Source: Nitrospirota bacterium (GTDB taxonomy: Bacteria; Nitrospirota; UBA9217). Taken from it: a DNA stretch of 64,000 nucleotides. The notes beneath the pieces were generated by a model that saw only the letters and a list, made by a program, of their open reading frames with translations, ran no database searches and was not told the DNA's origin. The stretch covers positions 14,644 through 78,643 of the forward strand of contig JBARBN010000228.1 of assembly GCA_049793155.1 (NCBI GenBank), in the 5' to 3' direction. Position 1 is the stretch's first letter. Each line of letters starts with the position of its first letter. A program made the position numbers and the translations under genes. This document shows positions 4,102 through 27,035 of the stretch, one piece after another.

Positions 4102-5460
4102 TTATCCCGCTGCCAGCTCAATATCTGTTATTTTGGTTCGCGATAACCTGTTGAAGGCGATGCCCCTCAACACTGCAGATAGAGAGTGCGCAGCAAGCAA
4201 TCCATAAGCCGCACCGATCAAGCCAAATGTGCGGACCAGGTATACATTTAATCCCAGCGTTGCGACCACCGCTATATTGATCTTGAAGTCAACATCGGCT
4301 CGTTCCATAGCAAAGAGGCCCCGCGAAAATGGAAATGTCGCCGAGCCCGCCACGAGGCTTAATGCAATAACAGAGAGAATCAAACTATTTCCGCTATACT
4401 TTTGACCATAAAGCAGAACGATCAACATATCGCCGAATATCATAATGAACACAAAGAATCCCAAGGTGAGCAAAACCAGGAGTGCTGCCGCTTTGAGGAC
4501 AAACCGGCGCATGGCTGGTGTGCCTCCCTGTGCGAAGGCATGAAGTATCCTGGGGCCAAGCAGGTTCTGCGTGCCGGCCAATACGATATTGCCGAGCCCT
4601 ATAACACCCATACAAACCGCCCATACGCCGTTGGCCTCAACTCCTTGAAAGACAGCAATGCACCACGGGAGAAGGCTGAATGCGGCCGACCACAGAAGAT
4701 TGCCCGCGGCGAGCCATTTTGCAAACATCCAGTTATGCCGGAATTCCGACCATGCTCTTGTCAGACTAAAGACAAATATATTTCTATTGAGAACCAGCCA
4801 AACCGCCGAGGTCAGACCGCACGCAATGCCTATAACAAGGAATGAACTATGAGCAGATAAAGCGCCATGCCATGCCAGCAACGATAAACCCCCAACCTGG
4901 AGCAGTACCGCAAAAGAATCCAGAATCAGCACTGTTTTCGCTCTCAAGGATGCAAAGCAGAGTTGGCGGATGAACTCCTTCAGCATGACAAATGTGATGA
5001 CGAGGATGACGGATCGCGAGACCTCCGCAAACCCCTTCGGTCCACGTGCGAAGGATAACACCGTCATGCAAATGACCATCACCAACAGCACGAGAACAGA
5101 ATAGGTCAGTTGATGAATGAGAGTGCTGCCATTGAATTGTCGGTGGCTATCGCCTTTTAATCGTGGGCTGTACACCGCGTAAGGTGTCGAAATAAATGCA
5201 GTCTGAAAGTCCGATACGAAGACCATAATGGTCAGTCCAAGTGCATAAAGACCAAGCTCTTCTTTTGTCGACGATCGGCCGATCAGCACGCTTGTCGCGA
5301 ATGCCGCGCCGCTGATCAACAGCTGATCAGAGAGGCCAAAGACCCCCTTGTTAGCTGCAAAAAGAAATTTATTTATCAAACCCCTTAAGAGAGGTTCGCG
5401 TGTCATGATGGCATCCCGGGCATTCTTGAATTTTTGCATGATATCAAAGAGAGCTGACAT
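4102..5460 (-). CDS. Polysaccharide biosynthesis protein / Wzx-like oligosaccharide flippase (MOP superfamily)
   Basis: 452 aa with about 12 predicted TM helices and a Wzx-like N-terminal amphipathic segment. It sits between a GT2 gene and galE. Confidence 0.55.
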   Translation of the reverse strand: MSALFDIMQKFKNARDAIMTREPLLRGLINKFLFAANKGVFGLSDQLLISGAAFATSVLIGRSSTKEELGLYALGLTIMVFVSDFQTAFISTPYAVYSPRLKGDSHRQFNGSTLIHQLTYSVLVLLVMVICMTVLSFARGPKGFAEVSRSVILVITFVMLKEFIRQLCFASLRAKTVLILDSFAVLLQVGGLSLLAWHGALSAHSSFLVIGIACGLTSAVWLVLNRNIFVFSLTRAWSEFRHNWMFAKWLAAGNLLWSAAFSLLPWCIAVFQGVEANGVWAVCMGVIGLGNIVLAGTQNLLGPRILHAFAQGGTPAMRRFVLKAAALLVLLTLGFFVFIMIFGDMLIVLLYGQKYSGNSLILSVIALSLVAGSATFPFSRGLFAMERADVDFKINIAVVATLGLNVYLVRTFGLIGAAYGLLAAHSLSAVLRGIAFNRLSRTKITDIELAAG

Positions 5461-7416: not shown

Positions 7417-8430
7417 TCAGGGCTGTTTTGCCAGGATGCTTTCATCCTTTAAAAGTATTTCCACTTTGGCCTTTTCGCGCAATTTCCTGGCTTGAAGGTC
7501 CGCCTGCTGTTTCGATTTTTCCTCTCGGAGAAACTGTTTTATTTTCTCCTTCACGTTTTCATAGGCAAGCACGGTTTCAGGCTTTCTATCGGTCAGCTTG
7601 AAAATGTGGAAGGCGTAATCTGTCTCAATGATCTCCGTCGTTTCTCCCGGTTTGAGCGCAGCTATCGCGCTTTCAAACTGTTTCTCCAGTTGCCCGCTTC
7701 TGAGATACCCCAGATCGCCGCCGTGGGTCCGCGTGGGACCGTCGGACTGTTCCCGTGCAAGGGCGGAGAAGTCCTGCCCCTTCTTCAGGTTTTTCAGGAT
7801 CTGCTCGACCTTCCGGCGAGCCTCCTCTTTTCGAACATTGTCCCACGTGGGGTCCGAACGGACCATGATATGGCTTGCGCGCACCTGATACGGCTGCTTG
7901 AACAGGTCGAGGTGGCCCTCGTAATAAGCGACCATGTCGTCCTCCGAGACCTTTGTTTTCGCCCCGAACTGCCGCTCAATGTACTGCTGGACCGAATTGT
8001 TCCTTTCCAGCCTGGATCGCAAGACCTTTTCCGAGATATGTCTTCTGCTCAATTCATTATTAAATTCCGTCTCATCGGGAAACTGTTGCCTCAGCGCCTT
8101 GAGCTCGGCATTGATGCCGTTTTCATCAGGCTTGATGCCGGCTTTGCGGCTCTCCTGGCAAAGGATCTCACGCCGGATCATGCTTTCGAGCACCTCTGCC
8201 CTGATGGATGCGACCTGGTTCGAAGTGAGCGGCTTTCCGTAACCCAGGAGCGTTTTCTGGATCGTGAGGACCTCTCCCTCAAATTCTCCCCGGTCAATTG
8301 ATGAGCCGTTCACCAGTGCCGCCGTGTCATCTGCCGGTTCAGACTTCTTCACTTCAGCCTGGGCCGTCAGTACTACTGCAAGGAAGCCCATCATGATCAC
8401 CATCATCCGAAATCGCGAAACTCCGCTCAT
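7417..8430 (-). CDS. SurA/PrsA-like periplasmic parvulin-type peptidyl-prolyl isomerase / chaperone
   Basis: Signal peptide. N-terminal SurA-like chaperone region. Parvulin domain HIMVRSD...GGDLGYL...FHIFKL. Confidence 0.7.
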   Translation of the reverse strand: MSGVSRFRMMVIMMGFLAVVLTAQAEVKKSEPADDTAALVNGSSIDRGEFEGEVLTIQKTLLGYGKPLTSNQVASIRAEVLESMIRREILCQESRKAGIKPDENGINAELKALRQQFPDETEFNNELSRRHISEKVLRSRLERNNSVQQYIERQFGAKTKVSEDDMVAYYEGHLDLFKQPYQVRASHIMVRSDPTWDNVRKEEARRKVEQILKNLKKGQDFSALAREQSDGPTRTHGGDLGYLRSGQLEKQFESAIAALKPGETTEIIETDYAFHIFKLTDRKPETVLAYENVKEKIKQFLREEKSKQQADLQARKLREKAKVEILLKDESILAKQP

Positions 8431-8432
8431 GG

Positions 8433-9125
8433 TTATTCTCCTCCGTTATCTTTTTTATTATTGATCTTCTGCTGCTCGATCTCTTCCCGGTACTTCTGTG
8501 TAAGCTGTTCCAACTCGACCTTTTTGACCTGGACGATGGGTTCTCTCTCAAGAATGGCCGCGCCAATTCCCTTATTCCGATATTTTGTCAACAGTTCATC
8601 AGCAATGATGCAGAGCTCGGCGTTGTTTGACGCGCAATGGGCAAGGTCCTGGGTCTTTCTTTTCAACTCCGACTGGAGGGCCTGTTTCTCCCCGGTTGTC
8701 TTTTTCAGTCCCAGCTCCAGTTCCTTATTGCTCTGAGCTGTCTCCCGCAGTTCCTTTTTCATTTTGGTGGAAGCTTCTTCCGATGCCCTGGCCTGCATCT
8801 CGAGCTTTTGCACCTGTTCTTTTACCGTCCCCAACTGTCCCGTCAGGGTCTTCCGCTCATTACGGAGCGTGAGTTGGAGCTTGTCCAGATCACTCCGGCA
8901 CTTCTGTTCATTTTGCTCCAGGGAACTCATTGCCTCGGTTTTGTCCTCTGCCATTTTTTTCTGGAAAAAGGCGACCTTCTTGTTTGCCTCCTTGATCCTC
9001 TCCTGGCAGATCTTCTGCTCCTTGTTAATCTGAATGTGCCCCACGCCCAAACCGATGATCAGGCCGATCGCCAGTGCGGCCGCGGGTATGATGTGTTTTT
9101 TCTGAAGCACGGGCAGCTTTATCAT
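8433..9125 (-). CDS. Membrane-anchored coiled-coil protein of unknown function
   Basis: One N-terminal TM (IIPAAALAIGLIIGLGVG) followed by about 190 aa rich in heptad-like K/E/Q/L repeats. Contiguous with the flanking genes, so probably co-transcribed. Confidence 0.5.
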   Translation of the reverse strand: MIKLPVLQKKHIIPAAALAIGLIIGLGVGHIQINKEQKICQERIKEANKKVAFFQKKMAEDKTEAMSSLEQNEQKCRSDLDKLQLTLRNERKTLTGQLGTVKEQVQKLEMQARASEEASTKMKKELRETAQSNKELELGLKKTTGEKQALQSELKRKTQDLAHCASNNAELCIIADELLTKYRNKGIGAAILEREPIVQVKKVELEQLTQKYREEIEQQKINNKKDNGGE

Positions 9126-9201: not shown

Positions 9202-10806
9202 CTAAAATCTTGCATTAAGATCCACCTGCAGCACGTCGATCCCAAGCGGTGGACCGCTGATCTCGTCCGCCGTCAACCATCGAAGCGTAAGCCAGGTGTT
9301 CTTCGCCAACCCGACATCGGTCCCCAGGATCCACCCTTTTGCATTGGTGCCCCCCAGATGAAAATCTGAGTCTGTAAAGCCGTCCACCACGGCGTCCGCC
9401 CCCAGGCGTTTTTTGTAGAAATACACCTTCCACTGTCCTGGCGCATAAGCGGCCGGATACCCTACGGACATACCATATTGGTAGCCCTCGATTTGCCTGG
9501 CGGGATCGGGATTGCCCGTCCTCTGGGCAACATCGGATTTTTTAAAACCGAGGTTTTTCACATAATCGCCGAGGAAAACGATATGAAAAGGGTCCCAGAA
9601 GCCGATATCGAGGGTCCCCGTGACGTTCAGTTCCTTGAATTCCGAAGCAAGGGCCGTCTTATAGACGTTCGGGTCCGCGCTGATATTGAGCAGGGTGTTC
9701 CCCTTCTGCTGGAACAGAGGGGCGGTCCAGTCGGTGGCGCCGGGATTATTAGGATCATTGGGCACACCCGTGATGTTCTTGAAATCGTAGTAGGCGGAAC
9801 CGATCTTAAAACCTATGCCGTTCTGGCTTTTCCGGTCCAGTCCCAACTGCCCGGCCATAAGCCACTTCCCGTGCTGCGTGAAATCGTTCTGCTGCAGCGG
9901 AAAAGCGCCGGCAGTGAGAAAGGGCGTCCATGATTCCGCAATGGGCGTCCTCGCCTGCAGGGCTAGACCCTCGAAATTTAAATCCCTGGCCCACACAAGA
10001 TCGGACGAAAACCACGGATTAGGCATCCTCCCCCCGTACAAGGTGATCGACTTCCACGGCTGCCACTTGAGATAAGCAAGATCGAACAGGACAGAATCCT
10101 TGTTCATGTAGTCACCCATGGTCGAATTTGTCGACACGGGGTTTGTCGTGCTCCCTGAGGCCAGGCGAATGACTGCATCCCATTCTTCATTTACCATCGC
10201 CTCCGCGCCGAAACGGACCCGGTATTTGAAGCGGTCCGCGTCAACCTTTGTATTCATGAGTTGACTCGGGCTTGCCGGCTGGGCAAAATCGGCGTTGTTC
10301 TTGTCAAAGCGGTCTTTCTCATATCTCAGTCGAAGCTCGCCGTAAAAGCGAAGCCGCTTGTCTTTTTCGGTCAAGGCCCGATTTATCTTCCAGACTTCCC
10401 TGAGCAACTCATTCGTGACCTCGCTCCTGATCTCTTCTTTGATGTCCTCAAGCGATTTCTGCGATTCCAAAACAGCGGTAGAGACCTGCTCTTCGGCGGG
10501 CTCGGTCGCTGTTTGTCCGGTAATAAGAGCGGCATCTTCGTCGCTTATCACTTTTTTGCTCTTCAGGAGCTCCAGCAGTGCCGCGGTCTGCTGGTCGGGA
10601 AGCTCCTTCCGGCGCTGCAGATCAGCCAGAGTGGCCGCAATCCTCGGATCAGCTGGTTCCTTGCGGGCTTGCTCGGCGGACAAAGCGGCGTCGCTTTGAG
10701 AGGGCATTCTCTCATGTTGTATGATCACGGGCTGGGGAGCGGATGCGCATCCGATAAAAAGTGAAAGCAGGACCACCCCTATACCCCAACTGACTTTTTT
10801 TCTCAT
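9202..10806 (-). CDS. Outer-membrane beta-barrel protein (putative porin family), lipoprotein-type signal peptide
   Basis: Start taken at MRKKVSWGIGVVLLSLFIGCASAP (10806), which carries a lipobox. A long coiled/charged N-domain is followed by an aromatic-rich beta-strand region. The C-terminus ...LQVDLNARF ends with Phe, typical of outer-membrane beta-barrels. No TonB-dependent-receptor plug motifs were seen. Confidence 0.55.
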   Translation of the reverse strand: MRKKVSWGIGVVLLSLFIGCASAPQPVIIQHERMPSQSDAALSAEQARKEPADPRIAATLADLQRRKELPDQQTAALLELLKSKKVISDEDAALITGQTATEPAEEQVSTAVLESQKSLEDIKEEIRSEVTNELLREVWKINRALTEKDKRLRFYGELRLRYEKDRFDKNNADFAQPASPSQLMNTKVDADRFKYRVRFGAEAMVNEEWDAVIRLASGSTTNPVSTNSTMGDYMNKDSVLFDLAYLKWQPWKSITLYGGRMPNPWFSSDLVWARDLNFEGLALQARTPIAESWTPFLTAGAFPLQQNDFTQHGKWLMAGQLGLDRKSQNGIGFKIGSAYYDFKNITGVPNDPNNPGATDWTAPLFQQKGNTLLNISADPNVYKTALASEFKELNVTGTLDIGFWDPFHIVFLGDYVKNLGFKKSDVAQRTGNPDPARQIEGYQYGMSVGYPAAYAPGQWKVYFYKKRLGADAVVDGFTDSDFHLGGTNAKGWILGTDVGLAKNTWLTLRWLTADEISGPPLGIDVLQVDLNARF

Positions 10807-10910
10807 GCTCTCGAAGGCCCTCGTTATAATACTGTGATTCCGTTGTTTCATCGTGATATCCACCTTAAGTCTCTTGCCCCCGTTCCAAGCTGTCGTTCTC
10901 TCGCACACTG

Positions 10911-11615
10911 TCAACCCTGCGAAGTGATCCTGATGTCCATCGTCCGCGGCATCCCGTTTGGCGGCGGCTCACTGATCTTGATCGAGCCGAGGGTCCGCAG
11001 GACCGCCTCGTCCATCCTGTTGTTCCCCGAAGATCCGATGATCCGGAATCCGACTATGGCGCCGTCACTGTCCACGCTTAGTCTGACGACCGCCTGCAGT
11101 TTCCCCTTGGGGATCCCGCCTTCGTCGTCAAGGCTCTTCATGACCTTCTTCCTGATGGTTGTCGTCACGATCTGGGTATACCCGGCGTATTTGTTCAGAA
11201 GAGAGATCGCCCCCATGCCGTTTCCACCGGCAAGGAGGCTTCTGCCTCCCTTTTTTCCGACTAGTCCGAACGCGTCGTTCCCGGCGCCCCCTTCCGCATC
11301 CAGACCCAGTTTGTCGCCGGCCGGTGTGTTGTCATTATCGGCACTCGGAGCAGCCGGAGCCTCGTTCTTCTGTTCCGGATCTATGATGTCTTCCTTCTTC
11401 TGGGTCTCCTTGACCGGCTCCGGCTCCGGCGGTTTTTCCTTGATAACGACCGGCGGAGGTTTCATCAGGGTCACCGTGGCCACGGTATTCTTTTTTCTCG
11501 GGACCGTGTCGCTCATGGCTACTTTGACGATATATATTCCCGCGCCCAGAATGATGATCATCACGGCAATGAGCCCCCAGGACACGGAAGGCTTTTTATC
11601 CGGCATGTCGGACAT
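10911..11615 (-). CDS. tonB: TonB-family energy transducer
   Basis: Start at MSDMPDKK, with a GGGGA Shine-Dalgarno. One TM helix, a Pro/Glu/Lys-rich spacer (KPPPVVIKEKPPEPEPVKE) and a C-terminal TonB-CTD-like domain (YTQIVTTTIRKKV...GKLQAVVRLSVDSDGAIVGFRII). Confidence 0.75.
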   Translation of the reverse strand: MSDMPDKKPSVSWGLIAVMIIILGAGIYIVKVAMSDTVPRKKNTVATVTLMKPPPVVIKEKPPEPEPVKETQKKEDIIDPEQKNEAPAAPSADNDNTPAGDKLGLDAEGGAGNDAFGLVGKKGGRSLLAGGNGMGAISLLNKYAGYTQIVTTTIRKKVMKSLDDEGGIPKGKLQAVVRLSVDSDGAIVGFRIIGSSGNNRMDEAVLRTLGSIKISEPPPNGMPRTMDIRITSQG

Positions 11616-11747
11616 ATTTTTTCCCCAAATTACAAAGAGCCTCTTACAAATGCAGCACCTGTTATTGTAGCCGCAGGCTTTAGCCTGCGCCCGGAACGCT
11701 TCAGTGAAAGAAACACGCAAGCTGAAGCTTGCGGCTACCTACCAGCG

Positions 11748-12164
11748 TCACTTCACCAGCTTCTGCGTCACCAGCCCAAGCTGGGTGATCTCCAGTCGCT
11801 GGAGGATATCCAGGACCTCAATGACTTTTTTGTACGATATTTTTTCATCGCCCCGGATCACGACCGGGAAATTCGGCTCTGCGGCTTTATACTGCCGAAG
11901 CCTGCCTTCCAGTTCCTGCAGAGTGACGGGAAAACTGTCGAGGAAGATGGGCCCGTCAGCAGTGATCGTGATCGCCTTCGTGGTGGACTTTATTTTCCCG
12001 GCGGCGGCGCCTGCCTTGGGAAGATTGACGGCGATCCCCTGCACAGAGGCCGTCACGACGATCATGAACACGAGTAGGAGGTTCCACGCCAGGTCAAGCA
12101 TGGGTACCACGTTGATCTCATCGTATGATTCAAGTTCATCGAAGGGGTTTTTCCCATGACGCAT
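11748..12164 (-). CDS. exbD: ExbD/TolR biopolymer transport protein
   Basis: EINVVPMLDLAWNLLLVFMIV...PVVIRGD is the ExbD/TolR signature. The start MRHG (12164) abuts the upstream stop at 12166. Confidence 0.8.
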   Translation of the reverse strand: MRHGKNPFDELESYDEINVVPMLDLAWNLLLVFMIVVTASVQGIAVNLPKAGAAAGKIKSTTKAITITADGPIFLDSFPVTLQELEGRLRQYKAAEPNFPVVIRGDEKISYKKVIEVLDILQRLEITQLGLVTQKLVK

Positions 12165-12165: not shown

Positions 12166-13989
12166 TCACTTGTCCCCTTCCAGCCTGAGGATGAAATCAT
12201 CGATAAAAACATTCACATCGGCATTCATATTTCTGATATGGCCGGTGACGTAACTGCTGGCGAACAGTGCGGGAATGGCGACCAGGAGACCTGCCATCGT
12301 GCAGGCAAGCGCTGAAGCAACACCCGGCGCGATCGCCGCGAGATTCGCTTCGCCGCTCTCAGCTAGGCCTGCAAAAGTGTTCATGACGCCCCAGACCGTG
12401 CCCAGAAGACCAAGGAAAGGCCCGCCCGCGACACTCATGTTCATGATGACCATGCCGGCGGAAAGTCTTCTGCTTTCATGCATGGCCTCTTTCTCAACAG
12501 CGGCCCGAAAACCGTTCATGGCCCTCCCGGAGAGTCCTTTTACTTCTTCATAAGATTCTCCCTTTCTCTCCAGCCCGTTTTTTATTTCTTCGCATCCGGC
12601 CCGGTAGACACGGTAGAGCGACGAGCCCGGGAATTCATGCTCCTTCTCAAGAAGCGCCAGGGGATGTTCGACATGCCGGAAGGACTGGGTAAACGTTTCA
12701 TTTCCCTTTTTTGCCTGGCCGAGTATGGTGATCTTCTGCCTGAAGATATACAGTGACCCGCATCCCATGAGGAACAGAAATCCGATGATAAGCCATCCAT
12801 CGAGGGTAATGGTCCGGATAATGACCTTCATAAGATGGACGGTCAAAGACTCGCCGCCTCCGCCGCCACCGCCCGTCTCTTCCTCCAGGTAGGACGTCAG
12901 CGCGCCGTCCGGTCCCTGGCCCTTGAAGGCCGCCTTGATCCAGCCGGCCGTTCTGGCCGTGTTGGACAACTGCACTTCATCCAGATCACCCGAAAACGCG
13001 TTGTCCCCTTTCTCGGATGCGCCGATGATGATTTCCGCTGAGGGCGCCGGTACCGCCCCTGTAAGTTTGATCGATGCTGTCTCAGTGCCATCCAGGTAAA
13101 GGGTGATCTTCTTATCGGGCTCCGCGGTCACGGCCAGATGATGCCAGCGATCCTGGACCAGGGCAGTTGTTTTCGGCGTCTCCGTGCTCCGACCTTTTCC
13201 CTGGCCCAGACTGCAGTATGCCTTAGCATCGTCGATCCCTATTACGATGGACTGGTTAAAGTCAGCCCAGGAAAAAAGACGCATATTCCCTGTAGAGCGG
13301 TTCAGGCGCACCCAGGCGGAAAAGGTGAATCCCTTGGCAAAGTTGAACGATGTCGCTCTGGCGACCGTCATCTTTGCATCGGTCCCGTTGAACTGAAAGC
13401 CGTTTCCGACGACCGACGGGATGCCGGGTTTGGCCGACGAAGAAGTGGTATGGTTGGCGTAAGCCGTTGCATCTTTCGGAAGTCCGAACAACTCATTCAG
13501 GTGATACACAGCCACCTGGTTCACATCATACGTCCCGCCCGCGTCCTGACCGTCCGGCGAGGAGGAGTTCCCGTAATACATCCAGATCGAATCCTGATCG
13601 GCCCCCCCGGAGATCCGGGGGACCTTGACCCATATCAGGGCGATCTCTTCCTTGGGATCGAACTTCTCGATATGATATTTCAGCGGTAACTTATCGTCCG
13701 CGCTCACAAACCTGAGGTCCGAGCCATCGGGCTTTGCATTGGGAAAATTGAAGTTGCCCGTATGGAGACGTACGAGAACGGGGACATCCGTGAGATCATC
13801 CTTGATGTCAGTGCCCTTGGATGTCGTATCGAACTGGATCTTTTTTCTTTGCTGCCACTTTCCGTCCCACCACGCATGCGCGCTCGGTGGAGCGAGCAGG
13901 CCGAGAACGAACACCAGCCCCGCAACAGCGGCCGCTGTTTTTATCAATGAACGCCACGGTATAAGAGAAGTTATTCTGCCCATAGACAC
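12166..13989 (-). CDS. Fusion protein: N-terminal periplasmic LamG/DUF2341-like domain of about 370 aa plus a C-terminal MotA/TolQ/ExbB proton-channel domain
   Basis: Signal/TM start. The N-terminal region is beta-rich and concanavalin/LamG-like, with a poly-Gly linker (GGGGGGG). The C-terminus AGGPFLGLLGTVWGVMNTFAGLA...AIAPGVASAL is the MotA/TolQ/ExbB channel signature, with three TM helices. Confidence 0.7.
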   Translation of the reverse strand: MSMGRITSLIPWRSLIKTAAAVAGLVFVLGLLAPPSAHAWWDGKWQQRKKIQFDTTSKGTDIKDDLTDVPVLVRLHTGNFNFPNAKPDGSDLRFVSADDKLPLKYHIEKFDPKEEIALIWVKVPRISGGADQDSIWMYYGNSSSPDGQDAGGTYDVNQVAVYHLNELFGLPKDATAYANHTTSSSAKPGIPSVVGNGFQFNGTDAKMTVARATSFNFAKGFTFSAWVRLNRSTGNMRLFSWADFNQSIVIGIDDAKAYCSLGQGKGRSTETPKTTALVQDRWHHLAVTAEPDKKITLYLDGTETASIKLTGAVPAPSAEIIIGASEKGDNAFSGDLDEVQLSNTARTAGWIKAAFKGQGPDGALTSYLEEETGGGGGGGESLTVHLMKVIIRTITLDGWLIIGFLFLMGCGSLYIFRQKITILGQAKKGNETFTQSFRHVEHPLALLEKEHEFPGSSLYRVYRAGCEEIKNGLERKGESYEEVKGLSGRAMNGFRAAVEKEAMHESRRLSAGMVIMNMSVAGGPFLGLLGTVWGVMNTFAGLAESGEANLAAIAPGVASALACTMAGLLVAIPALFASSYVTGHIRNMNADVNVFIDDFILRLEGDK

Positions 13990-13997
13990 GGTTTTAA

Positions 13998-16900
13998 TTA
14001 TTCCTCCTTACTCTTGTCATTATCGTCTTCAACAAAATCCACAACCTTCACATCCAGCCACTTCGCAATGATGTCCTCGACCATCTGAGATGCCTGCGCT
14101 CGAGACACGCCGATGCCGGATGCGTCAGTGTTCATCTGGGTGTTTTGCGTTATGCCGGTGCCCGCCAGCGTCCCCAGCGAAGCAGTGCCTTCCGAGGACT
14201 GGGGCACACCGATAGACCCAGCACTGAAGGTGATGTTCGAGGCATTGTTCACCTTGAGCGCCGCCAGGGTGATCTGTCCTCCCGCGATACCCGCTTCGCC
14301 CGCATCGATGACGCCCGTGGGTGCAAAGAGATGAACATTGCCGGGAACCGGCGGGTTGTCCCCGTACGTCAATGCCCGCATGCCGCTGCCGACAGCAGGG
14401 GGCGTAAACACCGTCTCATACACACCCGTCAAACCGGGAACTTGTTTCCGCTTTGGAGGAGAAGCGTTGACCGCGGTCCTTGATCCCCGGCCGGCATTAA
14501 TATTCCCCTGGTCGCTCCAGACGGTGATATCACCGTAAAGTTTCGTGGGGTCGACCATGTCCTGCCGGGAAAAAAAAGTCATGACGCGCGACTCCTGGAC
14601 ATTAATGTCTTTAACCGCGAAGATATTGATCGCTCCGCCATTGGCGGTCGTGATGCCGGTTGTGGTATTCACCACGCTTGCGCTCGGCAATGCGGTTTTT
14701 CCAAGGTTCAGGTTGCCGTTCGCGATGACGAAAATATCGGACGCAGCATTCGATGTCGAGATCTGCGAAGAGGTCATGTTGATATCGCCGGCGCCCGTAG
14801 GAGCGTCCAGGAGCGGAGCAATCGTTTTTGTTCTGGTCGTTTGCAACAGTTGGGATGCCTCATCCAATTTGCCATCGGCCATCAGCCCGGCGTATGTGTC
14901 ACCGGCCGTTCGAATGGAATTGAAGAAAGCCTGAATATCAGATGCCGGTTTGTCGAACCCGTATCCTGACAGGACAACCAGGCTGCTTTTTTCGGCTCCC
15001 AGGGCGGGATTATTGCCGTTGCCGATCTCCTGGATGCCGTCACTAAGCGATCCCAGGTCGATGGAACCTGCCGCCTGTACCAGGAAGACCCCCGGCCCGC
15101 CCTGGATCAGTCCGCCTTGTGCGGAGTTTTGCGAGGACGCCTTTACGTACTGTATCGATATGTCCCGGCCTGCCCGGATCATGGCTACATCATTAGAAGT
15201 AATGTTCTGTCCCTCATAGGTAATATCAACAATGTCCCGGCCTGCCGTCACTTCGGCCTTTTTCGAGAACTTCATGTTCAGACCTTTTATATCTTCGTCC
15301 GCATGGACCGTGATGGCTTGATCGTCCCCTGCATGCAGAGGCTCCGAAAACGACCATGTGTTGTCCGTTGGATCATACAGCCCGTGGAGGTTGGATGTTC
15401 GTTTACTGATCCATTGGCCGCTTTTCTCGGGGCTATCGGGGTTTCCGATATAGAAGAGCCCGTACCAGTTCTGGGTCGAGATGTCCGACATGAGGATCGT
15501 CGCAGATCGATAGGTTCCGTGAGCAGTATCCAGGACTTGTCCGATCACGTCGGCGCCGGCGTCGAGGCTGAGGTCCCCCTTGGAAAACGAGGCAAGGGTG
15601 AAATCATTCCGCAGCATAATATCCCCTCCCGCATCTACATTCACGGTCGCGGGCAGGACCCTCTCGTAATTCTTTGCATAACCCGTCGGATCATTTGCAT
15701 AGTAAGGCGAATTTCCTGCGATCGTTACATCGGTCCCGGCTTTGAGTTTGATGCTCGTTTCAGGCATATACGTACACTGCACAAAGTAGTTTCTGGACTC
15801 GTCTATCTTATCGCTTGCCAGTGTAGGATTGAGCACCGCGCCGATCTGCATCTCTCCCTGGGCAGTCACATTCATACGGCTGTTGAAAAGCTCGATCTGC
15901 GCCTGTTTATCAAATGCCCCGAAATTTCCCATGGCATGGATCTCCGCGCGTCCGGGCTCGCCTGCTGATCCATGATTCAGGAACCTGCCCTTGATATCCC
16001 CGCCGGAATAGATCGTAAGGTCTCCGGTCCCGAACGTCCCGGCCTGAGCAAGGAAATCTCCTCCTGTACGGACGGCAAGTTTCCCACCGCCCATGGTTGC
16101 CAGACCTGCGGTGCCGTTTACATAGTCGGCTGAGAAAACACCGTAATATGCAAGCGTCGCCGATCCTCCATTCCCCGCCAGCGGGAAAGAAACTTCTATC
16201 GGTGAAAAATAATCCCATGCATCTGTCTTGTCAGCTACTACCCATTGACCGGAGCTGTTCAATTTCCCCGCCTGTCTTCCCACCGAAAGGTTGATGTTGC
16301 CGCCTTTGTCGTATCTCCAATAATAGGTCTGGTAGATATCAGATTGAATTGATCCCGGGAGGGCAATTACCATCGGGTCAAAAGGATTATCTCCCCAGTT
16401 GGCAGCAGCCGCTGCTGCTGAAAGCCGGCCTGTCGTGCGGATCGCGCCGGCTCCGGCATTATTCGTATCATTTCCGACAAGGAGGTTCAGGTCTCGGCCG
16501 ATGTTGATGTCGATGTCGCCCGTCGCCGTCTGAATGGCTCCGGCTACAATGAGGTCACGGCCCACGTTTCCCCTGATCGATCCCGTAAAGGACGCAAGAC
16601 TATAGTTCATCATATAACTGGGCAGCATATACCCGGGCGGCTGGTCGGCAACGCCAATGATCGTGTCTTTTCCTGATGCGATACGGATGGGTGCGGTCTC
16701 GGTGTAAACAATTACATTGTTTGCAAAGCTAAGGTTTCCAGCGCCACTGTTGTTCACAGCCATATGATCGGCGCTCGACAGATCCGCTCCCGCAACAAGA
16801 TCAAATCCCCAGGAGTTTTGTCCTGAAGGGGCAGAGGTGATGTTGTAGCCGGATGGACTGTCCGCAAGATTGTTATTGATGTTGAGGTCACCCGCCGCGC

Positions 16901-19900
16901 GGATAGTCAGTACGCCTGGCTCGCCACCGAACCGGGAAGTGGTCGCATCCCAGGCTGCGTTCAAATCAATGTTGCCGTTACTGACTAATTCGATTCCAGG
17001 AAGGAGATGGAAATTATTGATGCCGGTTCCGAACCGGTTTGTATTATTCATATAATTTGTGTAGAAGGTCGTTGCGTCGCTGATCCCCGTGGGCAAGGCC
17101 AGATCGGGTGTCGAGGAAGATATATCGTATGATCTGACTGCTTCTGCGTATACTGCAGACGCGCCCGCGATGGCCCCCGAGGCTATAGTAGCGTTCAAGT
17201 CATTATTCGCCAAATTGCACTGCGCACGCAGGTAGACCACACCGGTGGGGGCAGTACCGTCGCTTCCGGACACATCAATCTTTCCGTTAATATTGATCGA
17301 TGCCGCTGATGAACTTAGCAGCACATTCGCATCCAAAGAACCGGATGTTGAAGAAACAGCCCGGATACTGCCGCCGGACTGAATGTTCAGGTCGTTCATG
17401 GCGTACAATTCGACACTGCCGCCTTGGCTGACTTCGATTCTTCCAGCGACATTGATGTTCCCATAAAGAGGATTGCCGTTGCTGTCCGTTAAGAGGACTC
17501 CATTTGCGTCTTTGGAGGGATCGTCTTCAGTAAGTTTGACAAGGTGCGCTGTCAGCTTATCGGTGGAAGCGATATCGATGTTTCCTTTTCTGGCCCGCAT
17601 ATCGACGGATTCCGTGAAGCCGCCCGCCGACAGGGTCCCGATGAGCCTGGTCATGTCAATGTCTGCAAGCTGACTGGTGTCGAGTATGAATGATCCGCCT
17701 GCTCCGCCATGAGCCGCAGCCATCAGACTGCCGTTAATCAAGACACCTCCTATGGGCGACTGAAGACTGATAAGCCCCGCGTCACCCTGGGAACCCGCGG
17801 ACACATCGATCAATGAAGACGAATCCAACACAATGCCGCCATTTACGGATTTCAGGAGCACCTGTCCTCCTGGCGCGTCAACAGTGCCTTGTGCGAGGAT
17901 CTTGCTGCCGCTGCGCAGCATGACGCCGTCGGCAGGTCCGGAACCCATTGCCGAGAGCTTAATGGACCCGCCATCGGCCTGTATCACTCCGCCCTGGTCG
18001 ATCGAAGCCCCCCAGAACTCCAGCGTCCCACCCTGCGTGGAGGATGGACCCGCAGCGTTTCCGTTGCCGGCAATAGTGATCTTATTGGTGGGGTTGGGAT
18101 CGTTTTGATCATTATGGTAATTAGCGCCGGCATAGACCGCGAAATCAGCAGGCGTAAGGGACGTCGTTGCCGTGCCGTCCTTATGCTTGTTTGTTCCAGC
18201 CGTGCTCACGGCAACCACGCGCGCGGCGCTGATCGACAGATCGGCGTTCCCCGCGCTCAGGCTTCCCTTTCCGTTCAGCGTCAAGTCGTTCCGGCTATTG
18301 AGATTGATCCTATTGAAATTTGCGAACAGAACATCGCCATCGCCGATGTTGATCGTGCCGATGCCGCCTGCATTGGCGGAAGTGGCGGCCGTGAAGATAG
18401 AGGCGCCCATGGACGCGTCGGGCGGTAACGTTGAAGCGGTTCCCGAATTCTTGAAATTGATGGTCGGTGCTTCCAGAGTAACTGCAATGGGACTCTGGCT
18501 CACGTTGGCAATGCGGCTTGCGTCCAGGGTCAGGCTGTTGCCGGCCGAAAGATTAAAGTTTTCCCGGAACTGGATGCCCGCATTATTGCCGCTGTTGCTG
18601 ACCAGGGTGATGTCCTGAAATCCGGTGAAATTATTAGTCCACATATTTTGTGTCACGTGAAGGCCGGTATCGGTCCGCGTCCCATCATCCAGAAATATGG
18701 CGCTGCTTTTCAGGGTCAGGGCGCCGTTGTCAGACTGGAGAGAACCTTTCATAGTTGCCACATTGTTCGCATCCAGACTTACGGCGTGAGTTGCGTGCAG
18801 AATAGCATTAGACCCGATATCAAGGGTGCCCGGCGTGGTCAATGTGATCACACCTTCGCCTGAGTTCGTATTCTGGTCAGTCACCGCCTGCAGTGAGGAT
18901 GATTTCCCGATCGTGATCTGATTCTTGGCTGCAAGCGAGATGATTGATGCGTTCAGGACCGTAGGTGCTTCAGCAGTGCTTGTAATCGTGATGCTGTTCG
19001 TTGAGCCTGCATCGCCCAAGTCGACTTCACGAAAACCCGTAAGACCGTCAGCGGACATTGTCAAGCCGCCTTTGAGTTTCTGGAGTTCGGGATGCAAAAG
19101 GTCGTCGAAACTGGTGTCGAAGTTGAAGTAATTCCCCAATGGGGATGTAGATGCGGTCTGCACGATGATATTCGCTGCGCTCAGGCTGATCTTCCCTCCC
19201 TGAAAGCCCTGTCCTGCAGCGGCTTTGAGCTTACCGTCGAGAATCATCGTATTCCCGGATATTTTTATGATGCCTGCATCGCCGGACAGGATTGGTTCCG
19301 GTTTCACATAACTCCCTTCCGCATGAAGGACTTCGGCCGCGGTCCGCACGGTGAAGACTTGCGGCCGCGTGCCCTGTATCGGGGTGTCCGCGACAGCCGA
19401 ATATCCGACAACAAGCGGGTACCCGTCTTTTGACAGCGCTCCCTGCTCCGGCAGGGATGGACCCGACTGCGCCTCGATGATAGAGGCCCCAGGGAGGAAC
19501 GCGTACCGCGCATTTTGAGGGTTCTTCGCATCCAGGGGGAGCAGGGTGTACATTCCCGCACTGAGGCCTCCCCCGCCCTGAAGATACACGGCCGTTCCGG
19601 GCATTGGGAAGGAATCGGCCTTGAAGACAACATAGCGTCCCGTCTTGGTGAGCGGATCAACGGAGCCTTCCACGCCCGGCTGGAATTTATACCCAAATAT
19701 CGAACCGCCGCCGGAAACGTCGATCACAGAACCTCCCCGGGCAACCACTTCGTCGGCATTCAGGGTGATGCCCTTCTGGGGAAGGCTGTCTTGCGTGATA
19801 CGCGATGTTGTTCCGGCGTTAATTCCCGGGTTGGACTTGTCCTCAAGGAGCCAAAGGTTGTTCGGGTCGATCAGACCGTACATTACCTCAGCACTCCCCG

Positions 19901-22900
19901 CGGTCGTCAGAACGCTGCCGTCGGCAAGATATATACGCTTTCCCGGGGCATTGAGTGTGATGGTCCCCATCGGGGCCGCGAGGGTCACGCCCTTTTCCAC
20001 ATCGATTCCTGCCAGGCCCTCCACAGTCAGGCTTCCGCCCGCCGAATAGATGGGCACATCTGCAGTGATATCCGCATTCTGGATCGTGTGCTGCAGCGTC
20101 ACTTTGCCGTTCGAGTGAACCGTGTAATCGGAGTACAGATCCGGATAGAATTGGCTTCCATGCGTCGTATATGAATAATAATTGCCCGGATATATCCGGT
20201 CCGCATCCAGAACCAGGTTGCCCGTTGTGGCCAGTATTCCATTCTTCACTGTTCCGGGATTGCCGTCTTTGCCGCTGGTGAAATTGTTGTCGTACAATAC
20301 CTGGCTCAGGCGTATATCCCGGTCGGTCCGCAGCGTGACATCACGAAAACCGTCGATCTGAACGTCTCCGATCACATCGATAAAGCCGCCATGTTTAACG
20401 CCGCTCGAATCTGTCCATCCTCCGGAAAGCGTGAACGATCCCGCGGTCGGGGAAGTTGAATTCGTGAGCGCCGGTGGAGACACTTTGGATGTGTTCGTAA
20501 GAACTATCCAGGGCGCGCTCAACGCCACGTTGTTTCCGGAGCCCGTGATCTCCGGCGCATCCAGGGTCAGCTTCCGGCCTATCAAGGCGTTATTGATGTT
20601 GCTGCTGAAGATAAGCGAGTACGCGCTCCTGAACGTCAGGTCGTCGAATCCCGTTGTGTGGAGAGCCAGCTTAGTGACGTCCATGCCGCTGGTCGCGTCT
20701 GTTTTGGCGATCGCCAGACTGCCTCCGCCCAGCCCCTCCAGTTGCGCATGATTGGCATATACGGAGCCCAGCGGATTCAGGTCGCTCCCGTAACTCAGGG
20801 AAACACTGCCCGGATTACTTGCTGTTTTATAGGTGGTGATCTTCCCGTTAGACAAGACCGTATTCTGGACCACGTCCGATCCTGAGACATCTACGATCGC
20901 CGAACGATCAATCTCCAGGGAACCAAAAGCAGTCAGTGACACATTGCCGCCGGTCATTGACTGGTAGTTGACGTCGAAGCCGTTTGGCGTAGATGACGGA
21001 TCAGGACGGTTGTATCCGGCTGCGGTTATTTTCGCGCCATTGCCCAGCAGAAGATCGCCCTTCGTCGCACTGAGGCTGATGTTTCCGGCCGGCGCGTCCA
21101 ACATTCCTTGCACGGTCACATTCGGGCCGGACAGAGATATGGATCCTCCGGGCGATGTTTGTATAACCGCGCCGTCGGAGACCATAAGGTTCACAGAGCT
21201 GCGATCTACGTCCTTTAAGTTGCCGGCAAAATTGCTGTTGCCGCTCGTCAGAGTGCCGTCAAAAAGTTTTGCCGCGTTCGCGGTAAATGAAGAGGGCCCG
21301 GCCATATAGCTCATAGCATCGTCGAGACGCATGAGATCGGGCCTTCCGGGTACCATGCTTCCTGAGGCATCCTGACCCTCGATCAGCGCTTTCCCTGTCT
21401 GCCCGATAATCGGATTGTTCATTCTGGCCAGCGAGGGAGTGATCGTTGTGTTTTTATCGATGATGAGATCATTCTGACTGTTGAGTGTGATCCGCGTGAA
21501 ACCAGTATCATCGAACCGGTTTTCGGCAAGGGTGAACTTGTCCTTCATCTCAGCGGAGACTGAAGATTTCTGTGGATCTGAACTGGCGGCATCAAAACTG
21601 CTCCAGTCGTATGTTTGAGGGATTGATGAAGCCGGAGCAACAGTAATATTGGTCGAAGCAAGGGTAATGGCGCCTCCCTGGAGTTTGCCGTTCGGATCAG
21701 CCAGGGCATAACCGCGCAGATCCCCGTCCAGCTCAATGTTCGTCCCCTGGATGCTTAATGACCCGGCATTCCCTCCCGTTACCTTGCCCTTCTGGTCGAT
21801 GGAGTATCCGCCGCTCACATCCATCAGGGCGCCCGTTTGCACGAAGACGCCCGCCCCCTGGTCCGTTTCATCCTTCAGAGAGACGGACCCGCCGTTCGTT
21901 CGCCCGGAACCTGCAAAGGCATTACCGGTTGTCCCCGCCTGGCTATTATCTATCCGTTCTCCCGACACATCGAGAACGCTCTTCTTTCCTGCAATGATCC
22001 TCTCATCGAGCGGCTCATAGGAGGCGCCATTGGACGTTCCGTTGGCGTTAAGTTGACTGGTGTTGTTCTGCGCCGCGTATAAATTTATTTCACCGCCGTG
22101 AACCGTGATCGAGCCCTCGTGGTCGATCCGTCTTGCCGTCGCCGCAAAAGAACCACCCGGTTGCAGCACGAGGCCGGCATCGGCAGCCGTGTCAATGGTC
22201 AGGTCTGCCGTAAGGTTCACGGTGCCCAGCTTCGCATTGTTCAGGGTCGTGGCCGAGATCAGCGTGGGACCGGTCAGGGGATCGGAACCGATGGTAAGCT
22301 TATTATCGATGCTAAGCTGTTGAGGGTCTATTTGCGAAAGGACGGAAATCGACGTGGGGTTATTGAGCGTAGTGCTTCCGGAATTGCCTATTTTCAGCGT
22401 TCCCGCCCTTGGTGTTTCGATGCCCTGGGCCTTGGAAAGCATCAGCGCTTCCTCGTAATCCGCATCGGTACCATATGCAGTTCTCGTCGTCCAGGCATTC
22501 TGATAGGTGCCGCGCGTTACACTGCCGTTGAGCTGACCATCGAGAACGACCGAGGACGCCGTGAGCGAAAGCGTGCCGGCATCGCCGCCCTGGGCATAGC
22601 CTTTCACATAGGTCTTCAACGAGGAGGCGCCGCCGTAGTATATCCCTGAATAGGACTCCCGGATACCGAACCCGTCGTACGTTTTTTCGTAATTTCCGAG
22701 GAGCTTATTATACTGAATGTTGGCCGGGGCATTGCCGATGTCGTAGATCTGCGTGCCTGACAGCAGCTTCGTGGAATCAACAAGGCCGCTTTGATAGTTG
22801 ATCAAGCCGCCGGCTAAATTGAGCGCGGCCCCTTGCTTGATGATAATATCGCCGTTCGTCACATTCATGTCTATGTTTCCGGTTTGGGGTTGATAGACCC

Positions 22901-26867: not shown

Positions 26868-27035
26868 GGTCTTGCACCTAGGGAATGATTTGAGATTTGT
26901 ACAGACAAAGGGTGATACCGGAACGGACCATGAGGACTCGTTATGGGCTTTCCGGTCGTTGATGCTTTTTGAGCACCAACTCAGCAAAGTACCCGCATAC
27001 TCTTGCGGTGTGCGAAGCGATACCATACTATAGTC

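Follow-up and report, generated by a model that had tools for sequence, protein, structure and literature searches.

The window, by which we mean the whole 64,000-nucleotide stretch of Nitrospirota DNA that was analyzed, carries on its minus strand a gene for an ExbB/TolQ-type protein with a large N-terminal extension, preceded by the genes of a two-partner-secretion (TPS) pair and followed by genes for further predicted envelope proteins. The features are listed below in the order in which they are read.

24392..25993, minus strand: TpsB, the ShlB/FhaC-type Omp85 transporter for TpsA; counterpart PdtB (PA0692) (Pfam ShlB, 4.4e-20; POTRA_2, 1.2e-13)
13998..24392, minus strand: TpsA, a 3,464-residue TPS exoprotein; counterpart PdtA (PA0690) (Pfam TPS and DUF3739)
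12166..13989, minus strand: DUF2341-LamG-TolQ/ExbB fusion, 607 residues; orthologue of Pseudomonas aeruginosa ExbB2 (PA0693)
13873..13989, minus strand: signal peptide of the fusion, residues 1-39, predicted cleavage after AHA (model helix and alignment)
13519..13872, minus strand: DUF2341 beta-sandwich, residues 40-157 (Pfam DUF2341 and AF2 strands)
12895..13518, minus strand: LamG/concanavalin-like jelly roll, residues 158-365
12814..12894, minus strand: flexible linker, residues 366-392, with poly-Gly at 373-379 (pLDDT below 50 at 359-396)
12169..12813, minus strand: TolQ/ExbB-type proton-channel module, residues 393-607, with TM1, cytoplasmic helices, TM2 and TM3 (PDB profile search, Foldseek)
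11748..12164, minus strand: ExbD/TolR-type subunit (Pfam ExbD, 6.9e-27)
10911..11720, minus strand: TonB-family protein with a C-terminal TonB_2 domain (Pfam TonB_2, 3e-11; TIGR01352)
9202..10914, minus strand: Porin_5-family outer-membrane beta-barrel; counterpart PA0696 (Pfam Porin_5, 5e-127)
8433..9125, minus strand: 230-residue coiled-coil protein with an N-terminal membrane or signal segment; counterpart PA0697 (homology)
7417..8430, minus strand: SurA-like PpiC-type peptidyl-prolyl isomerase (PPIase), a periplasmic folding factor; counterpart PA0699 (Pfam Rotamase, 5.2e-25; SurA_N_3, 6.4e-12)

The reading frame of the fusion is unbroken and begins with GTG, while the NCBI protein, 100% identical, begins at an ATG two codons downstream and has 605 residues. 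The initial annotation had described the product as an ExbB/TolQ channel with an N-terminal DUF2341/LamG module, and this was borne out by three Pfam domains scoring above their curated cut-offs: DUF2341 (PF10102; residues 88-155, E 4.9e-19, 69 bits vs a cut-off of 23.4) and Laminin_G_3 (PF13385; residues 201-351, E 1.2e-25), which are the two families that it had proposed for the N-terminal region, and MotA_ExbB (PF01618; residues 486-589, E 2.5e-26, 92.3 bits vs 22.9). The channel motif on which it had relied, GLLGTVWGVMNTF, lies at residues 527-539, and its poly-Gly linker is the run at residues 373-379. Both N-terminal domains were present in all 120 relatives listed, nearly all of which are about 560-690 residues long with all three domains, a few being truncated fragments. 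By tblastn against a one-genome-per-species collection, the full-length fusion was found in at least 597 species from seven phyla (597 of the 600 stretches examined, among the matches listed), and its boundaries stay constant through thousands of independent isolate, plasmid, and metagenome sequences. A frameshift, sequencing, or assembly artefact was ruled out by this full-length architecture common to the relatives, and the possibility that the N-terminal region is really an upstream gene could be set aside on the same evidence together with an end-to-end match to ExbB2. The fusion is not new as a protein family: databases annotate it as a "DUF2341 domain-containing protein", and DUF2341 on stators is listed as an uncharacterised appendage in a 2025 mBio paper (PMC12505986).

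The N-terminal part of the fusion begins with a hydrophobic helix at residues 12-32 of the structure model, followed by an AHA/WW junction at residues 37-41 in which A37, A39, and W40 are invariant in the alignment; such a signal peptide agrees with Sec export of the N-terminus and with ExbB's N-out topology. Within the periplasmic module, conservation is highest in the DUF2341 sandwich (median identity to the window protein of 54% among 80 species, vs 41% for the channel overall in 80 sequences), with near-invariant residues R48, R74, D91, R93, D99, K104, and D111. Of the 71 residues kept in at least 95% of the 80 sequences, 32 fall in the periplasmic module, and the pattern of conservation indicates that this module is under constraint. 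Modelled alone, it is predicted as one rigid unit (pLDDT 93.5, pTM 0.91), and the LamG-like fold that had been anticipated was recovered with confidence as a jelly roll. With both the profile match and the jelly-roll fold in hand, we assign the domain to the concanavalin-like lectin/LamG superfamily. Carbohydrate-binding modules were the best structural matches in a fold search, and the DUF2341-LamG pair is a generic binding block that is reused in many giant proteins of the cell surface. The linker that follows is 23-34 residues long across the family, its Gly run being specific to the window's lineage.

A PDB profile search with the channel module retrieved TolQ (2.2e-24, residues 396-602) and ExbB (5e-19), and Foldseek gave TM-scores of 0.78-0.81 against the TolQ chains of the TolQRA complex. 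The AF2 helices span residues 398-439, 513-545, and 550-605, and with the N-terminus placed outside by the signal peptide, the topology matches the three-helix one of TolQ and ExbB. The threonines T531 of the TM2 motif and T564 of the TM3 motif are kept in at least 95% of the 80 family sequences. Scores against the NCBIfam models for TolQ (TIGR02796, 118 bits vs an equivalog cut-off of 221) and ExbB (TIGR02797, 80.3 bits vs 206.2) fall short of the cut-offs, and the fusion represents a distinct subfamily. The five cassette proteins searched against the PADLOC defence models (Zorya and others) gave no match.

The operon is tightly packed, with the TpsA stop 8 nt ahead of the fusion start and the likely ExbD start 1 nt past the fusion stop codon (junction TGA-T-ATG). 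The window ExbD carries its membrane Asp in the motif PMLDLA and is 52% identical to ExbD2 (PA0694); the Asp was found in 73 of 79 loci. The TonB-family protein has a membrane anchor, a Pro/Lys/Glu-rich spacer, and the TonB_2 domain (likely start M36 at 11615; TIGR01352 score 32.5 bits vs a cut-off of 27.1), and its best match is TonB4 (PA0695). Judged by the retained TM2 and TM3 threonines, ExbD Asp, and TonB domain, the channel motor is intact. The canonical His is absent from the window protein's anchor and, by a crude hydrophobicity-window test, from that of 53 of 61 loci; coupling to the channel may thus differ from the textbook case.

TpsA has a TPS domain at residues 71-237 (6.5e-21) and a DUF3739 domain at residues 3287-3397 (1.1e-29), and its C-terminal region, which is kept across loci and ends in a strand of the form W-L-D/E-V-x-V-h-G/S-F, has the C-terminus of PdtA as its best match. 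TpsB is 33% identical to PdtB over 505 residues. The Porin_5 protein (likely start M22 at 10851) has a periplasmic N-terminal extension with a conserved helical motif and is 35% identical to PA0696 over 471 residues. The coiled-coil protein matched no Pfam family; in R. palustris, Povalibacter, the Klebsiella plasmid, and P. aeruginosa, the gene that follows Porin_5 encodes a homologue. The PpiC PPIase has PA0699 as its best match. A PDB sequence search returned no solved relative for the TpsA C-terminus, the coiled-coil protein, or Porin_5. The window also holds a NusG paralogue upstream, which was not kept in the other loci (BLAST, 80 loci). Several phosphatase genes lie elsewhere in the window; they were considered as part of the cassette and rejected, since the window phosphatases and the Povalibacter PhoD had essentially no BLAST matches in the 80 loci, and their neighbourhood is therefore local.

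Comparison with P. aeruginosa identified the cassette. The fusion aligns end-to-end with the P. aeruginosa protein (36% identity, E 5e-112), which has the same three domains in 615 residues, and the P. aeruginosa locus corresponds gene for gene to PA0690-PA0701a. That copy was retrieved with a Klebsiella plasmid copy as the query, Bradyrhizobium having dominated the listed matches of a query with Pseudomonas-like gene order. Every cassette protein of the window has its PA counterpart as best match. The window and PA0690-PA0699 alike encode TpsB, TpsA (TPS, DUF3739), the fusion, ExbD, TonB_2, Porin_5, a protein of about 220 residues, and PpiC. Since an ExbB2-type fusion is followed on one strand by ExbD, TonB, Porin_5, and a PA0697-like protein, and accompanies a ShlB-type TpsB and a TpsA with N-terminal TPS and C-terminal DUF3739, we class the locus as a PdtAB-type cassette and the fusion, on homology, as the orthologue of P. 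aeruginosa ExbB2. The gene order is TpsB-TpsA-fusion in the window but TpsA-PA0691-TpsB-fusion in PAO1, and the window lacks YbjN (PA0698), PA0700, LysR/AraC, and vreAIR and has the NusG paralogue upstream instead. No YbjN homologue or vreAIR-like genes were seen in the window; since only 14 of 80 loci yielded a YbjN match, the protein appears to be accessory.

The P. aeruginosa Pdt cluster belongs to the sigma-VreI/PhoB regulon. Sigma-VreI induces pdtA, pdtB, exbB2, exbD2, tonB4, and PA0696-0699 (PMC2729926; PMC7035377), and when phosphate is limiting, PdtA, PA0696, and PA0698 rank with the most strongly enriched proteins (PMC9769906). In a VreI-induced zebrafish assay, single transposon mutants of tonB4 (PA0695) and of PA0696 had wild-type virulence (PMC2729926), and in the searchable literature we found no report of an effect of tonB4 or PA0696 on PdtA secretion. 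The ExbB2-ExbD2-TonB4 system has been called 'still uncharacterized' (PMC7035377). Literature searches on TPS combined with ExbB, TonB, or TolQ returned nothing on the cassette except the Pseudomonas VreI papers, those on DUF3739, Porin_5, and PF16930 returned nothing relevant, and periplasmic force transducers are the subject of a 2025 MBE paper that mentions neither TPS nor the clade of the fusion.

The association of the fusion with TPS genes, which the initial annotation had proposed to look for in related genomes, was found in both directions. TPS genes lie on the fusion's strand in 70 of 75 loci, with a TpsA C-terminus or TpsB directly upstream in 60; the other 5 have no TPS gene within 10 kb. 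ExbD neighbours the fusion in 77 of 77 loci, TonB in 59 of 74, Porin_5 in 59 of 66, and the coiled-coil protein in 42 of 62, and the cassette is conserved over seven phyla. Conversely, among 72 DUF3739-type TpsA C-termini from metagenomes, 53 are followed on the same strand by the fusion (52 within 6 kb), generally with ExbD, TonB, and Porin_5 next where the contig is long enough, and 19 have no fusion nearby. Genomic support for the link is strong, and since the fusion almost always adjoins genes for giant secreted filament proteins, the motor probably serves that secretion system. The earlier proposal that the lectin-like module couples the motor to a specific ligand or polymer, possibly the TpsA filament or exopolysaccharide, is thereby supported in part: the genomic link to TPS stands, and the module itself may make the connection. 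The cassette also occurs on plasmids of clinical Klebsiella. Accessory genes for PpiC PPIase, DsbC, and YbjN occur in cassettes, in keeping with a large client protein that is secreted or placed in the outer membrane.

We hypothesize, with a probability of roughly 60%, that the fusion is the ExbB2-type A subunit of a Ton/Tol-like motor, driven by protons and dedicated to the TPS and porin machinery of the outer membrane, and that this motor is part of a conserved envelope cassette centred on a two-partner-secretion (type Vb) system. Once the signal peptide is cleaved, the DUF2341-LamG module would lie in the periplasm, tied by its short linker to TM1, and if the channel is a pentamer, as in ExbB and TolQ, five modules would ring its periplasmic face. 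Acting with ExbD, which is co-translated with it, and with the neighbouring TonB-family protein, the channel would use proton flow to do mechanical work at the outer membrane, most likely on TpsB/TpsA with its giant DUF3739-ended filament protein and/or on the Porin_5 barrel and its extension into the periplasm. The lectin-like ring may be the docking or adaptor surface that gives the motor its cassette specificity.

A more specific form of this hypothesis, which we offer tentatively and at odds well below even, is an energised type Vb system in which the ExbB2/ExbD/TonB motor engages the DUF3739 region or terminal strand of TpsA through the lectin ring and does work on it, powering or gating its export or holding, releasing, or retracting it. 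To our knowledge, TPS secretion is generally regarded as proceeding without an inner-membrane energy source, so that an energised step would be unusual. We know of no earlier TPS system shown to depend on inner-membrane energy, and this one, if the proposal is right, would be the first.

The motor might instead work in uptake, gating Porin_5 to import a nutrient captured or released by the surface TpsA filament, in the manner of HxuA/HxuB/HxuC (PMC5422565; PMC4873976) with Porin_5 replacing the TonB-dependent transporter and the lectin ring receiving or sensing the polymer as it arrives in the periplasm. Porin_5 accompanies the fusion almost as constantly as ExbD does, carbohydrate binding is common among LamG-like folds, and the conserved Porin_5 extension bears in Proteobacteria a beta-strand-like VRVTYVPExVK motif reminiscent of a TonB box, but the motif is missing from the window Porin_5 and the Desulfobacterota copies, and no plug domain or TonB-dependent-receptor family was detected in the cassette. 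Likewise, phosphate starvation induces secreted phosphatases along with the P. aeruginosa cluster, and the window has phosphatase genes of its own, yet such neighbours are not kept across the 80 loci, and the folding factors of the cassette point more to biogenesis. We consider uptake possible but rather doubtful.

It is unlikely that the module merely anchors the stator, the ring binding peptidoglycan or another periplasmic glycan to fix the ExbB pentamer, as the peptidoglycan-binding domains of MotB and TolR do in other stators, and recognizing no cassette protein. The lectin-type fold with its carbohydrate-binding structural matches, the reuse of the same two-domain unit in giant surface proteins, and a short linker that holds the module near the membrane and cell-wall zone are all consistent with anchoring; however, conservation peaks in the charged, near-invariant residues of the DUF2341 sandwich rather than on the sugar-binding face of LamG, and the tight two-way linkage with DUF3739-type TpsA would be left unexplained.

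Gliding machineries likewise combine a TolQ/ExbB-type motor, a TonB-like protein, an outer-membrane barrel, and a giant surface adhesin. By analogy with Agl-Glt gliding of Myxococcus or GldLM/SprB of Flavobacterium, the motor could drive or reposition the giant TpsA through the TonB-like and barrel proteins, and besides this parallel in composition, the cassette is found in Anaeromyxobacter and many non-flagellar sediment bacteria. We regard such movement as very improbable, since the cassette is also present in flagellated, non-gliding Pseudomonas, Bradyrhizobium, and Klebsiella, no gliding-specific Pfam families were detected in the window, and no track-forming cytoplasmic component is encoded. 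The chance that the N-terminal domain is a separate gene joined by error, or that a generic TolQ paralogue adjoins TPS genes by accident, is negligible: we found no support for it, the sub-cut-off TolQ and ExbB scores showing only that the protein is not housekeeping TolQ or ExbB, and it is contradicted by the constant boundaries, the end-to-end conservation with ExbB2, and the TPS linkage statistics.

Ton-, Tol-, and Mot-type stators are the main known route by which inner-membrane energy reaches the outer membrane in Gram-negative bacteria. The fusion family pairs a putative dedicated, lectin-bearing stator with a TPS system, a specialised porin, and periplasmic folding factors. Sequence comparison identifies the DUF2341 stator family as the orthologue of ExbB2 of the Pdt cluster. 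This identification joins the literature on stator evolution to that on Pseudomonas phosphate-starvation virulence, between which we found no cross-citation on this link among searchable papers, and it provides a tractable model organism for the motor's role, the P. aeruginosa member being phosphate-starvation-induced, part of the VreI virulence regulon, and still called uncharacterised in the searchable literature.

Several known systems resemble parts of the cassette. Like the fusion, the 'long' ExbB of Serratia marcescens and Alphaproteobacteria has a signal peptide that is cleaved off and, behind it, a periplasmic N-terminal extension. In Serratia this extension, borne by an ExbB pentamer, touches the C-terminal domain of a TonB paralogue dedicated to the system and plays a part in its function (Biou et al. 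2022, PMC9008036). That extension is about 50 residues long (from a few to 150), Ala/Pro-rich, and disordered, whereas that of the fusion is a folded, two-domain, lectin-type module of about 330-350 residues; moreover, the Serratia protein serves haem uptake via a TonB-dependent transporter, whereas the fusion is linked to TPS. TtpC/TtpB of the Vibrio TonB2 system, which serves siderophore receptors, and the DUF3450 appendages are, like the fusion module, extra periplasm-facing components that are either joined to an ExbB/ExbD/TonB motor or encoded with it, and TtpC is itself ExbB-like. Components of the TtpC/TtpB type are needed for motor function (PMC6957404), and DUF3450 appears with DUF2341 in a list of uncharacterised appendages at the N-termini of Exb/Tol-type A subunits (PMC12505986), although Pfam and NCBIfam searches detected no sequence kinship of the window proteins with the TtpC/TtpB/DUF3450 families. 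Among solved structures, TolQ of Tol-Pal is closest to the channel module in both sequence and fold, but it lacks the periplasmic module, and no tolB, pal, or ybgF lies near the fusion. Finally, although the HxuA/HxuB/HxuC system of Haemophilus influenzae uses the general Ton system and a classical TonB-dependent transporter, and has no dedicated ExbB/ExbD/TonB, Porin_5, or lectin-like stator domain, its TPS pair is linked, in genetics and in function, to a step at the outer membrane that TonB energises (PMC5422565).

The open reading frame at 12166..13989 of the minus strand has a GTG start and encodes 607 residues (NCBI places the start two codons downstream, giving 605 residues that are 100% identical). 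As the initial annotation had it, the product is an ExbB/TolQ-type channel with an N-terminal LamG/DUF2341-like part: three Pfam domains lie in this one frame, all well over the curated cut-offs, and the HMM search proposed for DUF2341 and Laminin_G_3 matched both.

Residues 88-155 of the fusion: DUF2341 (Pfam, E 4.9e-19)
Residues 201-351 of the fusion: Laminin_G_3 (Pfam, E 1.2e-25)
Residues 486-589 of the fusion: MotA_ExbB (Pfam, E 2.5e-26)

The motif GLLGTVWGVMNTF and the poly-Gly linker, both remarked on at the outset, were located at residues 527-539 and 373-379, respectively. The N terminus carries a signal peptide ending in AHA before WW, as is required of a Sec-exported periplasmic domain that precedes the N-out TM1 of an ExbB-type protein. 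An artefactual fusion, by frameshift or assembly error, is refuted by the full-length architecture of the database relatives. Three independent database searches found the N-terminal Pfam domains in 120 of the 120 best relatives, nearly all of which are about 560-690 residues long with all three domains, a few being shortened fragments. In a one-genome-per-species collection, tblastn found a relative in at least 597 candidate stretches, 600 having been examined, and the best 80 of these matches span essentially the whole protein. By record title, these best 80 fall in seven phyla: Nitrospirota, NC10, Thermodesulfobacteriota (Geobacter, Desulfobulbus elongatus DSM 2908, Desulfosarcina), Planctomycetota, Verrucomicrobiota, Myxococcota (Anaeromyxobacter), and the Alpha-, Beta-, and Gammaproteobacteria (Bradyrhizobium, Methylosinus, Magnetospirillum fulvum, Sulfuricella, Steroidobacter, Solimonas, Povalibacter). 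The fusion protein is a Nitrospirota member of a large, already annotated, functionally uncharacterised family, whose Pseudomonas aeruginosa member is ExbB2.

Structure prediction returned a LamG-like fold, in keeping with the initial annotation. The full-length model was of moderate confidence (pLDDT 68), with the LamG and channel parts at 80-90 and linker residues 359-396 disordered. When residues 40-376 were modelled alone from a 64-sequence alignment (pLDDT 93.5, pTM 0.91), the prediction indicated a single rigid unit in which a DUF2341 beta-sandwich (about 47-140) packs against a jelly roll (about 158-365), and Foldseek agreed. The C-terminal 210 residues are nearest to TolQ both by sequence (E 2.2e-24 versus 5e-19 for ExbB) and by fold (TM-score about 0.8 to TolQ in TolQRA). 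The channel module scores well under the NCBIfam equivalog cut-offs for TolQ and for ExbB, which makes it a separate subfamily; a housekeeping TolQ or ExbB was rejected on these scores and because the gene context is wrong.

Within the periplasmic part, conservation across the 80 species is highest in the DUF2341 sandwich, whose median identity to the window protein is 54%, as compared with 41% for the channel module overall and 32% for LamG. At a threshold of 95% or more of the sequences, 71 residues of the protein are conserved, 32 of them in the periplasmic module; these 32 include the charged residues R48, R74, D91, R93, D99, K104, D111, D155, H163, D173, D337, E338, and R346. A fixed and conserved partner or ligand would account for this constraint better than would variable ligand recognition. 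Across the family the linker is only 23-34 residues long, and the poly-Gly run is restricted to the window's own lineage. Since at least 95% of the sequences keep T531 and T564 of the TM2 and TM3 motifs, and 73 of 79 loci the membrane Asp of the adjoining ExbD, the ExbB/ExbD motor of the cassette looks functional.

In the window, the fusion lies among closely packed genes of the same strand, 8 nt separating the TpsA stop from its start codon and 1 nt its stop from the ExbD start.

Same strand: TpsB (ShlB/POTRA_2)
Same strand: TpsA, 3,464 aa, with an N-terminal TPS domain and a C-terminal DUF3739
Same strand: ExbD, TonB-family protein, and Porin_5 barrel
Same strand: 230-aa coiled-coil protein and SurA-like PpiC PPIase

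Six-frame ORFs of the 80 genomic loci were searched by BLAST with the window proteins, and genes that kept strand and order were counted among the loci with enough flank. The fusion was followed by ExbD in 77/77 loci, TonB in 59/74, Porin_5 in 59/66, the coiled-coil protein in 42/62, and the PPIase in 16/56. Immediately upstream (within 600 bp) we found the TpsA C terminus in 29 and TpsB in 31 of 75 loci; TPS genes stood elsewhere in the locus in another 10, and none lay within 10 kb in 5. In the reverse test, metagenome contigs were scanned with an alignment of DUF3739-type TpsA C termini. Usable sequence downstream was available at 72 loci. At 53 of these the fusion was encoded downstream on the same strand, in 52 cases no more than 6 kb away and in one at 6.7 kb; where the contig was long enough, ExbD, TonB, and Porin_5 generally came next. 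The absence of the fusion downstream in the other 19 is partly expected from the common Bradyrhizobium/Rhodopseudomonas order, in which tpsA is placed after the cassette or exists in extra copies. Conservation of the fusion beside TPS genes in related genomes was therefore strongly positive in both directions, and the genomic evidence for the suggested TPS link is strong.

Some cassettes carry further genes. YbjN was present in 14 of the 80 loci, and a DsbC-like disulfide isomerase lies between tpsA and the fusion in Povalibacter uvarum (L040, 9073..9843) and in loci L009, L039, L109, and L122; in P. uvarum a PhoD phosphatase and an arginase-family gene come after the cassette. In Rhodopseudomonas palustris BisB18 (L082), genes of 169 and 121 residues without a Pfam family flank the TonB gene (12465..12974 and 13726..14091). 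The first of these alphaproteobacterial extras is conserved in 9 loci and the second in 19, and both are missing from the window cassette. About 370 bp upstream of tpsB in the window lies a NusG-domain paralogue (26364..27026, minus strand, 220 aa, Pfam NusG 5.9e-19), which had no BLAST counterpart in the other 80 loci and could be an operon-specific antiterminator for the roughly 19-kb TPS-motor operon.

When 1.84 billion cluster representatives were scanned exhaustively by HMMER with residues 40-376, 33,209 matched at E <= 1e-3 and 1,758 of them at E <= 1e-30. The best matches were mostly giant proteins of 1,500-7,800 residues rather than ExbB fusions, in which the complete DUF2341+LamG unit of about 320 residues is repeated 3-27 times at 25-33% identity. 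They come from Kiritimatiellia (P0241, 7,264 aa), Parcubacteria (P0260, 1,825 aa), and Fibrobacteria, among others, and the neighboring domains (within P0241-P0389) include PKD, FG-GAP, and CarboxypepD_reg. This recurrence marks the unit as a probable general extracellular binding block recruited by the stator family. In a survey of stator evolution, DUF2341 figures among the uncharacterised N-terminal appendages of Exb/Tol-type A subunits, and its study is called for (mBio 2025, PMC12505986); recognition of the whole periplasmic unit as a reused extracellular binding block goes beyond the literature searched.

The cassette combines an intact ExbB/TolQ-ExbD-TonB motor, a predicted rigid lectin-type module on a short periplasmic tether, and operon structure with two-way linkage to a DUF3739-type TPS, a Porin_5 barrel, a coiled-coil protein, and periplasmic folding factors; the orthologous P. 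aeruginosa genes are co-regulated (PMC2729926). By analogy with solved ExbB and TolQ, the fusion would form a pentamer with five modules round the periplasmic channel mouth. The work of the motor would be aimed at the co-encoded outer-membrane machinery, for which the module ring would be a docking surface conferring specificity. The nearest mechanistic precedent is Serratia ExbB, whose N-terminal extension, there short and disordered, binds HasB, a TonB paralogue, at its C-terminal domain (PMC9008036).

Candidate contacts can be named. The last 25 or so residues of DUF3739-type TpsA proteins (in the window 13998..14100, minus strand; C-terminal alignment A4) include a conserved amphipathic strand, W-L-D/E-V-x-V-h-G/S-F (AKWLDVKVVDF in the window), followed by an acidic tail; this strand, similar to a beta-augmentation or TonB-box-like element, is a candidate binding site of TonB or of the lectin-like ring. 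The periplasmic extension ahead of the Porin_5 barrel (about 10400..10700, minus strand; loci L005-L073) has a conserved helical motif, LLxLLxxKGVIxxEEAxxL, duplicated in some copies, and proteobacterial copies add a strand motif, VRVTYVPExVK, which the window copy lacks; both motifs are further candidates. In the cassette TonB anchor (10911..11720, minus strand, and 60 loci), the canonical His of the TonB/TolA S-x3-H motif is missing in 53 of 61 by a crude hydrophobicity-window test with uncurated start codons, so coupling to the channel may lean more on periplasmic contacts.

The work of the motor may serve the export, the release, or the retention of TpsA, with a type Vb secretion step possibly energised, or it may gate uptake through Porin_5. 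We favor secretion or biogenesis over uptake because PPIase, DsbC, and YbjN-type accessory genes accompany the cassette; uptake gated through Porin_5 keeps about one chance in five. A phosphate-scavenging neighborhood was rejected as a part of the system, as the window phosphatases are not conserved in other loci; these window genes recall the phosphate-starvation regulation of the Pseudomonas orthologues.

Minus strand, 28356..29615, 36459..37859, 38442..42947, and 50422..52179: a weak PBP_like_2 (PstS-like) protein, a PF04185 phosphoesterase, a 1,501-aa Metallophos/5'-nucleotidase with CBM96 and MBG, and a purple-acid-phosphatase-like protein

Six minus-strand ORFs of 260-878 residues without a Pfam family at E <= 1e-3 to 1e-4 (469..3105, 4102..5460, 27204..28091, 29700..30482, 31056..32321, and 35413..36456) sit between polysaccharide-synthesis (GT2, epimerase) and phosphatase genes. 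An anti-phage defence motor is unlikely, as none of five cassette proteins searched had a PADLOC match.

The fusion also occurs on twelve PLSDB plasmids or chromids, one from a clinical Klebsiella pneumoniae isolate. This IncFIB/IncHI1B plasmid (NZ_CP065459.1, 1-13800; L083) carries a whole Pdt-like cassette in PAO1 order, from the TpsA C terminus to LysR; its tpsB is broken into two ORFs and IS5/IS3 elements adjoin immediately downstream, which suggests horizontal acquisition and partial decay. With this copy, whose gene order is that of PA0690-PA0701, as the query, we retrieved "DUF2341 domain-containing protein [Pseudomonas aeruginosa]" (615 aa, a 904-member cluster) with all three Pfam domains. 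Its context, TpsA (4,180 aa, TPS + DUF3739), DUF772, ShlB-type TpsB, fusion, ExbD, TonB_2, Porin_5, a 220-aa protein, YbjN, rotamase, a 141-aa protein, LysR, and AraC, is PA0690-PA0701a. In PAO1, the sigma-VreI regulon includes PA0690 (tpsA), PA0692 (tpsB), PA0693 (exbB2), PA0694 (exbD2), PA0696-0698, and PA0699 (PpiC), a mutant of the tonB homologue PA0695 was assayed, and the co-travel of TPS, exbBD, and PA0696 homologues in other bacteria was already remarked (Llamas et al. 2009, PMC2729926). The TPS pair was later named PdtA/PdtB, and under phosphate limitation PdtA, PA0696, and PA0698 rank with the most enriched proteins (PMC9769906). The VreI/Pdt papers on P. aeruginosa do not mention the DUF2341/LamG module; explicitly recognising ExbB2 as a DUF2341-LamG fusion, and showing that the TPS linkage is broad and holds both ways, goes beyond the literature searched. 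The P. aeruginosa and window fusions align end to end (36% identity, E 5e-112), every other window cassette protein has its PA counterpart as best match, and R. palustris BisB18 carries the same gene set as the PA cluster.
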